Positions 56,201-59,200 of a stretch of 64,000 bases of DNA are shown here, in pieces. A program made the position numbers. Position 1 is the first letter of the stretch; each line of letters begins with the position of its first letter. The stretch lies in NCBI RefSeq assembly GCF_013167455.1, contig NZ_CP038328.1, one strand, 5' to 3'. Source of the DNA: Escherichia coli O157:H7 (GTDB lineage Bacteria > Pseudomonadota > Gammaproteobacteria > Enterobacterales > Enterobacteriaceae).

Positions 56201-59200
56201 GTGGATCTGGTTTTCGCGCCCTCGGTAAAAGAGATCTACCCGAACGGTACTGAAACCCATACTTACGTTGACGTTCCAGGGCTTTCGACCATGCTGGAAG
56301 GCGCCAGCCGGCCGGGGCATTTTCGCGGCGTGTCGACTATCGTCAGCAAGCTGTTTAACCTGGTCCAGCCGGACATCGCCTGCTTCGGTGAAAAGGACTT
56401 TCAGCAACTGGCGCTGATCCGCAAAATGGTTGCTGATATGGGCTTTGATATTGAGATTGTCGGTGTGCCAATTATGCGCGCCAAAGACGGTCTGGCACTG
56501 AGTTCCCGTAACGGTTATCTGACGGCAGAACAACGCAAAATTGCGCCCGGTCTGTACAAAGTTTTAAGTTCGATTGCCGACAAATTGCAGGCTGGCGAAC
56601 GGGATCTCGATGAAATTATTGCTATTGCCGGGCAAGAACTGAATGAAAAAGGCTTCCGCGCCGATGATATTCAGATTCGCGATGCCGACACATTGCTGGA
56701 AGTCTCTGAAACCAGCAAACGGGCAGTAATTCTGGTAGCCGCCTGGCTTGGCGATGCTCGCCTGATCGACAACAAAATGGTCGAGCTGGCGTAATACTTA
56801 TACTCTAAATAATTCAAGTTGCAAGTTGCAGGAAGGCGGCAAGCGAGTGACAAATTCGTCAGGAACGAATTTGCCCAGCCGCAGGCTGGCCTTCGGTGAG
56901 AGACATGGATGTCTCTCATTAATCCCCAGGAGCTTACATAAGTAAGTGACTGGGGTTAGCGAACGCAGACGCAGCACATGCAATTTGAAGTATGACGAGT
57001 ATAACTGGCGCTACGGCTGATGGCGCCAATTATTAATTTGCCCCACGTCATGGCGATGGCGTCTGTAAGCAATTATTCATAACGCAGACAACTTAGTTAA
57101 TCAGCCTATCAATCTCAGCAAGAGATAAATTTGTCATCTCTGCAACGTCTTCCCGAGACATCCCTTTACTCAGAAAACGCTGGGCGAATTCTTGCCTCTC
57201 CTCCTGTCTTCCCTGCTGAATCCCCTTCTCAATCCCTTTCTCTTCAAACCACTGTGCCAGCGTCATCATAGACTTCCCTCCCGTTTCCCTGTCTCTCAGC
57301 ACACCATAAAACAAATCCGCTTGTTCAGTATGACCGCGTTGCAGCATATAGTTTTGCATGGCAACTAACTGACTTTCGCTAGTGTACCCTTCGTCAATCA
57401 GCGTGACCAGTTGCTCCAGCAATAACATTAAGTCGCGCTGGCGAATATGTTTTTGCAGTAGTTCGAGAATCGCAATCCGCCGATGTTGCATGATTTCGTC
57501 ATCCGGTGTGATGGTGATATCCACCAGCGGGAAAGGACTGTTATAGACGCGTCGCGCCAGCTCCGGCGAGTAAAACATATCAAACCAGCACATTGAGAGC
57601 GGATAAGGTGTGGCCTCGCCCTGATAAAAGAGAATCGGCACTACCAGCGGTAGTTTGTCGTGATCCGCCTCCAGATGCCGATGCATGGCGGCTATAGAAT
57701 AACGCATCATGCGAAAGGCCATTTTCTTATCCGGCTTGCTTTGGTGTTCAATCACAACATGCAGATAACCGGGATTGCCCTGCATTTGCACGGAATAGAG
57801 CACGTCCGTGCTGTGTCCTTTAAGGCTCTCTTCAATGAAACTCCCCGACTCTAAATGAAGCGTGTTGAGGTCACAAAGTTCGCGTAATTCCACTGGCAAA
57901 TGTATCTCCAGAAAGTCGCGAGCCGTCTCCGCATGCATTAAAAATTGTTTAAATACCGCGTCATGCGGTGTGGTACTCGGTGCATCCATCTTCCCTGTCT
58001 TCCGTGTTGTCTTGCGTGAAGGCAGTATCCAGTCAAGGCGTGCTATCGTCAGCCACCTCTTTATTGTTTACCGAGCAGCGTTCAGAGAAATATCAATTCG
58101 TTACAGGCGATACATGGCACGCTTCGGCGCGGTACGCAAACTGCTGATGCAAATGCCGTCAGATGAGTAGACACTAAACAAAAATCGGGCAATACTGCGT
58201 GAGAATTTCCTCAAAGCAGGCACCGCCTGCTTCGTTAACGACAGGGTAGAAAGGTAGAAGTTATGATTCGCACGATGCTGCAGGGCAAACTCCACCGCGT
58301 GAAAGTGACTCATGCGGACCTGCACTATGAAGGTTCTTGCGCCATTGACCAGGATTTTCTTGACGCAGCCGGTATTCTCGAAAACGAAGCCATTGATATC
58401 TGGAATGTCACCAACGGCAAGCGTTTCTCCACTTATGCCATCGCGGCAGAACGCGGTTCGAGAATTATTTCTGTTAACGGTGCGGCGGCCCACTGCGCCA
58501 GTGTCGGCGATATTGTCATCATCGCCAGCTTCGTTACCATGCCAGATGAAGAAGCTCGCACCTGGCGACCCAACGTCGCCTATTTTGAAGGCGACAATGA
58601 AATGAAACGTACCGCGAAAGCGATTCCGGTACAGGTTGCTTGATTGTTATCCCTGCGGCTGGTTACTCACCAGCCGCGACATCGTCTCCAGCGAATCCGT
58701 TCTTAAGATATAAAGTCGTTTTAGTAACAACGGATTATCCCCCGGTTTTACTTTGCCTTTCATGGTTGTCACCGCCAGGTGAAATCCGGCATCGTTTGCT
58801 GCCTTCACGGCTTTGTCATTAAAGCCGCCAAACGGATACGAAAGATACCAGACATGCGGATTAAATTGCGCCAGAGCGCGACGTGAACGTGCAAAATCAA
58901 ACAGAATATTGTGCTCACTACGGCTCAGTAATATGGGTCGGCGATAACCATCTACCCGATGCAAAAAATGGGTATGTGACTGGAAATCAAATACATCGCG
59001 AATTTCGTTAAGCTCAGAAACGCTCATAAATTGCAGCGATTTTGGTTCCCACTTCTGCGGGTGACGTTTGATGCGCGAGGTAACAATAAACGCCGTCGCC
59101 TTCATGCCATATTGTTTCAACACAGGATACGCATAGCGGCTCACTGACTTGAGGCCATCATCAAAGGTAATCACCACCGCTCGCGCAGGAAGATTGATCT

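Follow-up and report, generated by a model that had tools for sequence, protein, structure and literature searches.

Pantothenate locus of Escherichia coli O157:H7: an rpnC insertion and a panD 3'-end stem-loop within the yadE coding sequence

Introduction

The pantothenate locus of Escherichia coli K-12 is formed by genes b0130–b0134 (yadE, panD, yadD/rpnC, panC, and panB). Earlier work explained the position of rpnC, between panC and panD, by insertion and described the erosion and duplication of its C-terminal segment; for overexpressed K-12 RpnC, DNA endonuclease activity, toxicity, and SOS induction are published (Kingston 2017, PMC5350276). The rpn genes encode a toxin together with an intragenic antitoxin (Zhong 2023, PMC10400941). 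RpnC-S is translated and blocks RpnC-L only when the two have equal numbers of repeats. A defence phenotype was described for a plasmid Rpn and not for the chromosomal RpnC (Zhong 2023, PMC10400941).

The closest described counterparts of the panD mRNA 3' end are the protective 3' stem-loops of Dar & Sorek 2018 (PMC6061677), which are stable, lack a U-tract, and are followed by a sharp transcript end a few nucleotides on and by a Rho-sensitive region beyond. Of the convergent gene pairs in MG1655, 165 overlap in 50% or more of 58 RNA-seq sets; yadE-panD is one of them, and rpnC-panC is present in the same list (ExcludonFinder 2025, PMC12288877). The list records, for both pairs, the overlap alone and not reciprocal regulation.

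ERIC elements are imperfect palindromes of about 127 bp with a central CCCCAGGAGCTTACATAAGTAAGTGACTGGGG core, here located in a transcribed 3' region. They occur in multiple copies and are polymorphic in their presence at individual sites. Long forms with internal insertions are known.

Here, we describe the pantothenate locus in a 64,000-nucleotide stretch of E. coli O157:H7 DNA, referred to as the window. None of the points made in an initial annotation of the window is new, and nearly everything in it was published before (Kingston 2017, PMC5350276; Zhong 2023, PMC10400941; ExcludonFinder 2025, PMC12288877; Adams 2021). We add the conservation of the panD 3' hairpin, the position of rpnC relative to a module upstream of panD, the distribution of rpnC, and the recognition of the ERIC element as an unrelated minority allele.

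Results and discussion

Organization of the locus

The locus is the standard, well-described Escherichia pantothenate locus. It starts on the plus strand with panB (55137–55931), encoding 3-methyl-2-oxobutanoate hydroxymethyltransferase (PF02548, E=2e-106), and panC (55943–56794), which has a GTG start and encodes pantoate-beta-alanine ligase (PF02569, E=5e-107). The rpnC gene (57093–57989) follows on the minus strand. The panD gene (58263–58643, plus strand) encodes aspartate 1-decarboxylase (PF02261; TIGR00223 equivalog, 228 bits) and converges with yadE (58647–59876, minus strand), which encodes a member of the polysaccharide deacetylase family (PF01522, E=1.5e-21). Open reading frames, protein profiles, and the RefSeq annotation agree with the gene calls and coordinates given initially, and RefSeq annotates the same genes in O157:H7 in a sequence 100% identical to the window.

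Gene order and orientation are common to O157 and K-12, as are the 273-bp spacer between rpnC and panD and the 3-bp spacer between panD and yadE. The spacer between panC and rpnC is 298 bp long in O157, where it contains a 204-bp ERIC element, and 73 bp in K-12. The RpnC proteins of the two strains are 97% identical, and that of O157 is two residues shorter at the C-terminus. We consider it likely that the locus as a whole is explained by the insertion of rpnC, a hairpin at the 3' end of panD, and a later, unrelated ERIC insertion.

RpnC is a predicted nuclease toxin with an intragenic antitoxin

The 298-residue product of rpnC is the long toxin form of the Rpn recombination-promoting nuclease. 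The PF04754 (Transposase_31) profile covers residues 7–208, corresponding to profile positions 1–202 of 203 (E=1e-87), and the match to TIGR01784 reaches 298 bits, with a cut-off of 52. Catalytic residues are present at D10, D62, E81, Q83, and R93, together with a PDDE motif at 162; their RpnA counterparts are D11, D63, E82, Q84, R94, and D165 (Kingston 2017, PMC5350276). The putative antitoxin open reading frame rpnC-S (57093–57269, minus strand) would extend from M241 to N298, a start codon assigned from the internal methionine and the repeat that follows it. The region begins with MMTLAQ from residue 241 (M241/M242) and continues with KGIEKGI from residue 251. RpnL/RpnS pairs are recognized by a variable four-residue repeat located 8–20 residues past an internal methionine (Zhong 2023, PMC10400941), and the sequence of O157 rpnC has both an internal methionine and a strain-variable repeat, with two KGIE units in O157 and a number that differs among strains (loci L002–L005). 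We predict RpnC to be a PD-(D/E)XK nuclease toxin whose antitoxin is translated from within the 3' end of the same gene.

The PF04754 domain, the internal methionine, the KGIE repeat, and the strain variation are shared with the systems of Zhong 2023. Some strains carry an additional downstream gene, rpnC-Ss, whereas O157 is without such a copy. There is nothing different in kind between O157 rpnC and those systems. A PADLOC scan of RpnC returned no defence-system call; its one match, a marginal one (E=6e-4), is between the C-terminal tail and a "putative invertase" model. In the reading that we favour for the locus, rpnC probably has no functional tie to pantothenate synthesis.

rpnC is inserted upstream of a module that accompanies panD

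The separation of panBC from panD by an inserted rpnC, as annotated initially, is borne out by the sampled species, 69 of 80 of which have contiguous panBCD with no rpn sequence between panC and panD; Salmonella arizonae adds one locus with an rpn remnant only. In rpn-free genera, the site TAGACA-17-AATACT directly follows the panC stop codon, so that the empty site reads as the panC stop immediately before TAGACA...CAATACT, followed by a hairpin and panD. The site is conserved in rpn-free Citrobacter, Klebsiella, and Kluyvera. In the window, it is located at 58168–58196 on the plus strand and is matched by a promoter scan; we regard it as a putative panD promoter. Downstream of it, 30 nt before the panD ATG, a conserved hairpin with an 8-bp stem is followed by TTCGTT (58214–58232, plus strand), and four of its pairs have compensatory changes across 35 species. 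The Term-seq table of Adams 2021 contains no 3' end upstream of panD.

The segment 57990–58167, an upstream leader of rpnC, forms the panD-side end of the inserted segment. The leader can be aligned among Escherichia, Pseudocitrobacter, Salmonella diarizonae, UBA5654, and S. arizonae, and ends at the same junction before TAGACA. The distance from the rpn ATG to the panD ATG is 273–274 bp in intact copies. Since rpnC was inserted upstream of the promoter-like module, panD would keep its own expression signals, and because it lies exactly between the panC stop and that module, no operon is visibly broken. The view of the pan split as an operon break is thus not upheld, as panD has the same module in rpn-free genomes.

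Of 5426 complete E. coli genomes, 5419 carry the rpnC locus (at least 80% of 56700–58900), and the gene is also found in the loci of all six Escherichia species sampled. Four loci from other genera carry an rpn gene, 58–65% identical, at the equivalent place and in the same orientation; a related rpn at a base-identical junction is found in Pseudocitrobacter, S. diarizonae, and one further genus. With rpnC fixed across the genus and a related gene at the identical junction elsewhere, the insertion is not a recent one. We propose that a single-gene insertion of rpnC, exactly between the panC stop codon and the conserved promoter-like module, would have predated the divergence of Escherichia species.

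In K-12, the ends of the rpnC insert share neither terminal inverted repeats nor a target-site duplication, and rpn genes are generally without them (Zhong 2023, PMC10400941). The identification of rpnC as an insertion sequence or transposon was rejected on this ground. Kingston 2017 (PMC5350276) proposed a homing-like, site-specific insertion of rpn at the junction of the panC stop and the panD promoter, which would have occurred at least twice independently. The presence of two divergent rpn clusters at one site, one in Escherichia and the other in Salmonella/FGI57, speaks for this proposal, as does the Rpn identity of 58–65%, compared with 85–90% for the flanking PanC and 96–98% for PanD. 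Empty sites that look pristine in Citrobacter, Klebsiella, and, according to Kingston 2017, S. Typhimurium LT2 also agree with it. However, the two clusters share the panD-side junction to the base, and their 178-bp non-coding leaders can be aligned. The pattern fits one ancient insertion with fast divergence, and with spread or loss by recombination between the conserved flanking pan sequences. S. arizonae is a case of loss by deletion. Terminal repeats and target duplications are absent, and RpnA has little sequence specificity in vitro (Kingston 2017, PMC5350276). We therefore find repeated homing-like arrivals rather doubtful.

The panD mRNA ends past a stem-loop inside yadE

The panD stop TGA (58641–58643) and the yadE stop TAA (58647–58649, reverse complement) are separated by a 3-bp spacer (58644–58646), as had been annotated. 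All Escherichia loci examined have this 3-bp gap. Among 56 enterobacterial species with an abutting yadE, the gap measures 1–6 bp in most, whereas the remaining nine have 32–61 bp. The close spacing is not accidental.

The initial annotation held that the junction leaves no room for terminators. There is indeed no intergenic terminator, but a 3'-end stem-loop sits in the last nine codons of yadE. The 23-nt element GCGGCTGGT-TACTC-ACCAGCCGC (58655–58677) has a 9-bp GC-rich stem, occupies the yadE codons R-L-V-S-N-Q-P, and folds with a dG of -18.7 kcal/mol (z -3.95). No U-tract follows the stem on either strand, the downstream sequences being GACATCGTCTCC on the plus strand and AGGGATAACAAT on the minus strand. 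The element does not fit an intrinsic terminator: the GC-rich stem is present, but it is without a U-tract and was not called by the terminator scan.

In MG1655, the "primary" panD 3' end was mapped by Term-seq to 146275(-), with a matching 61-nt sequence and 125,366 and 41,034 reads in two conditions (Adams 2021). We verified the register of that table using its hpt and can rows. The end corresponds to position 58682 of the window, 39 nt past the panD stop and 36 nt inside the yadE coding sequence, and lies 5 nt past a stable stem without a U-tract, as in the class of Dar & Sorek. The stem-loop and the mapped end together form a panD mRNA 3'-end module (58655–58682, plus strand). The overlap of the convergent transcripts, which the initial annotation had deduced from the spacing, is confirmed by this end and by the RNA-seq list in which yadE-panD and rpnC-panC are overlapping pairs. 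The Term-seq literature searched has no main-text match for panD.

Transcription probably continues beyond the mapped end. A Rho region antisense to yadE is recorded at 145798(-) with a score of 7.2 and p=8e-27 (Adams 2021, supplementary file 2); the reads upstream and downstream of it number 214/27 without BCM and 412/373 with BCM. The score peak corresponds to about position 59159 of the window when mapped by offset from the 146275 end, a coarse placement, as the scores were computed in 800-nt windows. At this coarse resolution, Rho would stop panD read-through within about 0.5 kb, after it has crossed the antisense-yadE stretch 58683–59159 (plus strand); because of the 800-nt windows, the data leave action of Rho on panD read-through specifically unproven. 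The C-rich, G-poor composition of Rho-utilisation sites gives only a weak signal downstream of the hairpin: one 50-nt window has 16 C and 9 G, and the others contain similar numbers of both.

The panD module resembles the stem-loops of Dar & Sorek 2018 in its stability, its lack of a U-tract, the sharp end a few nucleotides on, and, at coarse resolution, the Rho-sensitive region beyond. It differs from them in that it lies inside the coding sequence of a convergent neighbour, and the role of exonucleases at panD is putative. We hypothesize that RNA polymerase reads past the stem-loop into the yadE antisense region, that Rho releases it within a few hundred nucleotides, and that 3'-to-5' exonucleases trim the RNA back to the stem-loop, which would give the sharp end 5 nt after it. 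In its stable form, panD mRNA overlaps 36 coding nucleotides of yadE, and transient read-through would overlap more. The stable overlap is short because the stem-loop that sets the 3' end is in the last nine codons of yadE.

The table of Adams 2021 contains no yadE 3' end. A hairpin at 58564–58580 in panD was considered as the yadE-side counterpart and rejected, since its codons vary freely among species (entropy 1.7–2.0). A weak terminator-like match is present on the minus strand at 58624–58611.

Conservation of the panD 3' hairpin

Across Enterobacteriaceae, the hairpin has been kept, with compensatory changes, and it pairs better on the panD strand. In the cross-species alignment, 98.4% of cells are paired on the plus strand, with 32 G-U pairs and 8 mismatches, versus 93.3% on the minus strand, with 7 G-U pairs and 33 mismatches; these counts carry no correction for phylogeny, and the 21 G-U cells at one pair may go back to a single event or a few. 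In the 50 nt that follow the panD stop, 77 of 80 species have a hairpin of -12 kcal/mol or lower, compared with 34% of random windows.

Lying inside the yadE coding sequence, the stem-loop is constrained at the protein level as well as at the RNA level, and much of its conservation could reflect the protein, because the C-terminal SRL[V/I]SNQPQG of YadE is highly conserved. The stem-loop might be a by-product of this conserved C-terminus and ordinary codons, with panD mRNA ending there since any stable hairpin stalls exonucleases. The peptide SLETMSRL(V/I)SNQPQG hardly varies among 55 sequences, the codons CTG, CAG, and CCG are frequent ones, and the proline and glutamine codons of yadE are fixed no more strongly in the stem than outside it. 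Kinship among the sequences can moreover inflate scores based on shuffling. Against this explanation, the rare arginine codon CGG in the stem is fixed in 53 of 55 yadE sequences (entropy 0.26), whereas other yadE arginine codons vary freely (entropy 1.2–2.4). In Kosakonia, CGG is changed to AGG and CCG to CCT, both synonymously, and the pair is kept. The wobble pairs favour the panD strand. The hairpin has persisted, with compensatory changes on both sides, after the deletion of yadE in Pluralibacter MAG L018 and Intestinirhabdus L044, and where yadE is absent or displaced, a different strong hairpin follows panD. A mere by-product is in our view unlikely.

We see an even chance that the 23-nt stem-loop is a selected dual-use element that sets and stabilises the 3' end of panD mRNA, constrains the choice of codons and of valine or isoleucine at the YadE C-terminus across Enterobacteriaceae, and outlives yadE. 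Such an element would be a clean natural case of a 3'-end signal encoded in, and shaping, the coding sequence of a neighbour.

Transcript overlap and regulation

The yadE and panD transcripts overlap as those of a convergent excludon do. The pair could form a regulatory excludon, in which one gene represses the other by transcriptional interference or by RNase III cleavage of the duplex. The entry of yadE-panD in the list of overlapping pairs (ExcludonFinder 2025, PMC12288877) is in line with such regulation, the panD 3' UTR is antisense to the 3' end of yadE, with read-through going further, and the tight arrangement is kept in most Enterobacteriaceae. However, the stable overlap comprises only 36 nt of yadE coding sequence, and Rho would limit the read-through. 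Several lineages have separated or lost yadE with panD unchanged, and we found nothing that connects a polysaccharide deacetylase functionally with beta-alanine synthesis. Regulation of this kind appears distinctly improbable.

ERIC element in the panC 3' region

The ERIC repeat (56799–57002) in the panC 3' region is of the long form, with a 71-bp internal insertion (about 56850–56920) and a 7-bp duplication. It has terminal and central inverted repeats (I1, I2), and its central palindrome occurs once in the window. We take its core to be that of the published ERIC consensus. ERIC is absent from Rfam, and the identification rests on the repeats, copy number, and site polymorphism: the element exists in multiple copies, forms an imperfect palindrome around a conserved central inverted repeat, and is variably present at orthologous sites. 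An Rfam scan of 55000–60500 at E<=1 gave three matches at chance level, none near its gathering score, including one weak V_AS5 match over the ERIC. Copies are found at a median of six places per E. coli genome. At the spacer between panC and rpnC, the element is absent in K-12, E. whittamii, and E. coli E69, and E. albertii has a short form; the ERIC-filled allele is present in 427 of 5426 complete E. coli genomes. The element would be a later, strain-variable insertion, unrelated to rpnC. The suggestion of the initial annotation that RpnC acts on, or is recruited by, the adjacent ERIC draws on the 90 bp that separate them in O157 and is extremely improbable, as rpnC occurs without the element in K-12, E. 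whittamii, and E69, the ERIC allele is far rarer than the rpnC locus (427 versus 5419 genomes), and ERIC copies occur at about five other places per genome without a shown rpn link.

Between panC/ERIC and the rpnC stop, a hairpin at 57005–57029 has invariant columns in six Escherichia lineages. Its folding energies are -13.4 kcal/mol on the plus strand and -15.0 kcal/mol on the minus strand (z -3.4 and -4.6), and the terminator scan gave a terminator-like match on the plus strand. The invariance and folding make it a candidate two-way terminator for panC and rpnC. The Term-seq table of Adams 2021 contains no panC 3' end.

Implications

Beyond good annotation, the analysis of this textbook locus is of little importance; the insertion of rpnC, the toxin-antitoxin character of that gene, and the overlapping transcripts have all been described before. 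The lesson is that a convergent gene pair with almost no intergenic space may carry a 3'-end signal inside the coding sequence of the neighbour; near-zero spacing need not mean that the signal is missing, because it can sit there. If selection on the hairpin is confirmed, the panD/yadE junction would be a tidy test case of overlapping RNA-structure and protein constraints, and recoding or deleting yadE could affect the expression of panD.

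Layout of the panBCD-yadE locus

The panC and panD genes are separated by the oppositely oriented nuclease gene rpnC, with an ERIC element on the panC side, as proposed in the initial annotation. Open reading frames, domain matches and the RefSeq annotation agree on the positions of panB (55137–55931, + strand), panC (55943–56794, + strand) and panD (58263–58643, + strand). The rpnC gene (57093–57989, − strand) matches PF04754 with E = 1e-87, and yadE (58647–59876, − strand) matches PF01522, both in agreement with RefSeq. The panD stop codon TGA (58641–58643) and the minus-strand yadE stop codon TAA (58647–58649) are 3 bases apart, which confirms the spacing reported initially. 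O157:H7 chromosomes match positions 56700–58900 at 100% identity, and 5419 of 5426 complete E. coli genomes hold at least 80% of this segment. The gene order, insertion analysis, nature of Rpn, mapped panD 3′ end and overlap calls have been published previously.

The comparison set was built from a PanD scan with one genome per species, giving 80 loci onto each of which six proteins of the window were mapped (loci are designated by L numbers, with positions counted within the locus). Locus L051 (CACSKA010000010.1), titled Chryseobacterium sp. 18061, carries an enterobacterial panB-panC-panD-yadE-yadI block with a PanD identity of 94%, and the assembly is probably mislabelled or contaminated. 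In L084 (Leclercia adecarboxylata NCTC13032), L040 and L010, the tblastn matches to panC, yadE and yadI come in pieces or with shifts of frame. Assembly indel errors are the likely cause in L084 and L040, and the broken yadI of E. albertii L010 is probably a genuine frameshift.

The panD transcript ends inside yadE

A stem-loop in the panD-sense strand, GCGGCTGGT-TACTC-ACCAGCCGC (58655–58677), is embedded in the yadE codons for Arg-Leu-Val-Ser-Asn-Gln-Pro and has a folding energy of −18.7 kcal/mol (z = −3.95). With no T-run behind it on either strand, the element does not qualify as a canonical intrinsic terminator, and the terminator scan made no call. The Term-seq data of Adams 2021 (supplementary file 1) place a panD 3′ end classed as ‘primary’ at MG1655 146275(−), where it is antisense to yadE. 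Two growth conditions gave 125,366 and 41,034 reads for this end, whose row occurs three times in the three-sheet file. The accompanying 61-nt sequence corresponds to window positions 58632–58692. The register of the table, 50 nt upstream, the end itself and 10 nt downstream, was tested on the hpt and can rows. The MG1655 gene coordinates used in this check reproduce every K-12 locus spacer length. This register puts the panD 3′ end at 58682, which is 5 nt beyond the stem and 39 nt beyond the panD stop codon, with 36 nt of the yadE coding sequence covered. The overlap of panD and yadE transcripts proposed from the sequence is thus borne out. The accompanying claim that the spacer leaves no room for terminators is misleading: there is no intergenic terminator, but the embedded stem-loop sets the panD end and the stable overlap is short.

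Supplementary file 2 of Adams 2021 lists a Rho-termination region sensitive to bicyclomycin (BCM) antisense to yadE, with a peak at 145798(−), equivalent to ~59159 in the window at the coarse scale of 800-nt windows. In the absence of BCM the reads upstream and downstream number 214 and 27, and in its presence 412 and 373 (score 7.2, p = 8e-27). In Rho-dependent transcripts described by Dar & Sorek 2018 (PMC6061677), a stem-loop shields the RNA from 3′ exonucleases. The panD end has in common with this class a stable stem-loop, the lack of a U-tract and a sharp end just 3′ of the stem; at the coarse scale of the windows, termination beyond may likewise depend on Rho. We infer that the panD stem-loop would similarly protect the mRNA from 3′ exonucleases. 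The Adams 2021 Term-seq table contains no yadE 3′ end. A hairpin inside panD (58564–58580), considered as a signal serving yadE, is not conserved and was rejected.

Conservation of the panD stem-loop

The yadE gene abuts panD in 56 of the 80 species, most with a stop-to-stop gap of 1–6 bp. The gap is 61 bp in Kosakonia, and 32–35 bp with a second GC-rich hairpin in Kluyvera, K. pneumoniae, Enterobacter sp. JUb54 and Raoultella sp. BIGb0138 (L033, L034, L043, L046, L049, L056, L063 and L071, about 5382–5416). In the loci with the 32–35 bp gap, panD is followed by tandem hairpins, one intergenic and the other embedded in yadE. Five loci of Raoultella and a relative (L054, L057, L060, L061 and L069, from 5382 onward) have 0.85–2.5 kb of other DNA between panD and yadE. 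They contain a new strong hairpin 3′ of panD, and the yadE-embedded hairpin is still there, with mismatches in L060.

The stem-loop could be a by-product of the YadE peptide rather than selected for panD, and the C-terminal peptide of YadE is itself very conserved. Pairing differs between the strands, however. Over nine pairs in 55 distinct sequences, counted with no correction for shared ancestry, the panD-sense strand forms standard pairs in 98.4% of cells (32 G-U cells and 8 mismatches) vs 93.3% for the yadE-sense strand (7 G-U cells and 33 mismatches). Both-sided changes occur in two or three of the nine stem pairs. In Citrobacter-type sequences, GGT/ACC is changed to GAT/ATC, a Val-to-Ile replacement with a matching synonymous Asn change, and the combination of AAT with GTG, which would mispair on the panD strand, is not seen among the 55 sequences. 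Kosakonia has Arg CGG changed to AGG and Pro CCG to CCT, both synonymous, and the pair is kept. For the stem Arg, 53 of 55 sequences use the rare codon CGG (entropy 0.26 vs 1.2–2.4 for other conserved yadE Arg codons). The stem Leu codon is moderately fixed, and the Pro and Gln codons are not distinctive.

The hairpin also outlasts yadE. It is kept after panD, with both-sided changes, in two genera that have lost yadE, represented by a Pluralibacter MAG (L018; GCGGCTGGC...GCCAGCCGC) and Intestinirhabdus (L044; GCGGCCGAT...ATCGGCCGC). Escherichia sp. MOD1-EC7003 retains a yadE remnant of ~250 bp (L007, 5391–5638) with fragments of residues 1–41, 86–106 and 377–408, and the 3-bp spacing and embedded hairpin are kept despite this erosion. 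Where yadE is absent or displaced, panD is followed by another strong hairpin, usually with a T-run. A hairpin of −12 kcal/mol or lower is present within 50 nt of the panD stop codon in 77 of 80 species, compared with 34% of random 50-nt windows. These sequence comparisons make it somewhat probable that the stem-loop has been selected for panD.

Insertion site of rpnC

All six Escherichia species-level loci carry rpnC (84–97% identity). Two Pseudocitrobacter loci, Salmonella diarizonae and the genus UBA5654 have a 58–65% identical rpn gene at this position, oriented as in Escherichia; the UBA5654 copy is broken near its start, and intact copies start 273–274 bp from the panD ATG. The 415-bp panC-panD interval of Salmonella arizonae (L020, 4586–5000) consists of both ends of a Salmonella-type rpn and its leader, with a ~760 bp internal deletion relative to S. 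diarizonae L015, and is a decaying copy. The remaining 69 of 80 species, including Citrobacter, Klebsiella, Enterobacter, Kluyvera and Pluralibacter, have no rpn sequence and a panC-panD gap of ~35 to 270 bp.

In many rpn-free genera, among them Citrobacter, Klebsiella, Kluyvera and Superficieibacter, the panC stop codon directly abuts a conserved module upstream of panD. The module (58168–58262) is composed of a sigma-70-like site TAGACA-N17-CAATACT (58168–58196), found by scanning and kept in rpn-free genera, a hairpin with an 8-bp stem (58214–58232), four pairs of which show compensatory changes across 35 species, and a TTCGTT tail, followed by the panD start. It is found at both rpn-filled and empty sites; Enterobacter, Lelliottia and Leclercia have short, different spacers in its place. 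The inserted segment of this strain (56795–58167) lies exactly between the panC stop codon and TAGACA, and therefore the module is intact. TAGACA/CAATACT is a putative panD promoter. The module could represent this promoter with a 5′-UTR structure, or an old panBC terminator; an Rfam search matched it to no known regulatory RNA.

Kingston 2017 (PMC5350276) analysed 32 panCD segments, distinguished two rpnC clusters and found the site empty in S. Typhimurium LT2. The same study described erosion of rpnC and duplication of its C-terminal part, and proposed that insertion took place twice independently. The non-coding leader from the rpn start to TAGACA is alignable between Escherichia-type and Salmonella-type inserts, and this leader ends at the same base in both. 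We lean towards a common ancestry of both types, favoured by the shared junction and alignable leader. The insert is flanked by neither terminal inverted repeats nor target duplications. The rpnC insertion is older than the divergence of Escherichia species, and the pristine empty sites in outgroups speak for contiguous panBCD as the older arrangement.

The ERIC element and the panC-rpnC spacer

When the panC-rpnC spacers of six Escherichia lineages are aligned, the ERIC (56799–57002) is missing from K-12, where the spacer is 73 bp, and from E. whittamii and E. coli E69. E. albertii carries it at this site in a short form. The long form, found in O157 and Escherichia sp. E1V33, contains an internal insertion of 71 bp, which in O157 (56850–56920) holds two small perfect palindromes (56851–56873 and 56897–56918); O157 has an additional 7-bp duplication (CAAGTTG). 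An ERIC-wide Rfam match to the Vibrio RNA AS5 (RF02818) is weak (22 bits vs a cut-off of 96). The filled ERIC allele is present in only 427 of 5426 complete E. coli genomes and is thus independent of rpnC; the initial suggestion that RpnC acts on the ERIC is unsupported, as rpnC occurs without it.

The hairpin adjoining the ERIC (57005–57029) folds well on both strands, is invariant in 6/6 Escherichia lineages, and may act as a two-way terminator serving panC and rpnC. The Adams 2021 Term-seq table contains no panC 3′ end. The published BCM data do show a region of strong Rho termination within rpnC on the panC strand, at MG1655 147624(−) (score 16.9, p = 8e-69), which maps to ~57335 on the + strand of the window, and ExcludonFinder 2025 (PMC12288877) lists rpnC-panC among overlapping pairs. 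Therefore, panBC read-through appears to run antisense over the part of rpnC encoding the RpnC-S antitoxin.

RpnC and its predicted antitoxin part

Residues D10, D62, E81, Q83, R93 and PDDE162 of RpnC correspond to D11, D63, E82, Q84, R94 and D165 of RpnA, which are needed according to Kingston 2017 (PMC5350276). An internal methionine, M241, is followed ten residues on by a KGIE repeat, with two KGIE units in this RpnC; the number and type of repeats (KGIE or RQEV units) of the main RpnC differ from one E. coli strain to another. In some strains of E. coli and Escherichia, an extra ORF of 65–71 residues lies 3′ of rpnC, a 67–71% identical copy of the C-terminal domain (L003 1691–1906, L004 1675–1890, L005 2249–2446 and L011 3527–3727). 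Zhong 2023 (PMC10400941) showed that the separately translated C-terminal part of Rpn is the antitoxin RpnS against the full-length nuclease, that RpnC needs a matching repeat number, and that some strains have rpnC-Ss copies downstream. RpnC of this strain does not depart from that system, and the extra ORFs and repeat variation fit the description of rpnC-Ss.

The additions made here to the published picture of the locus are modest. The first is the conservation of the panD stem-loop, its strand preference and its survival after yadE loss; the second is the position of the rpnC insertion, exactly upstream of a conserved promoter-like module of panD.
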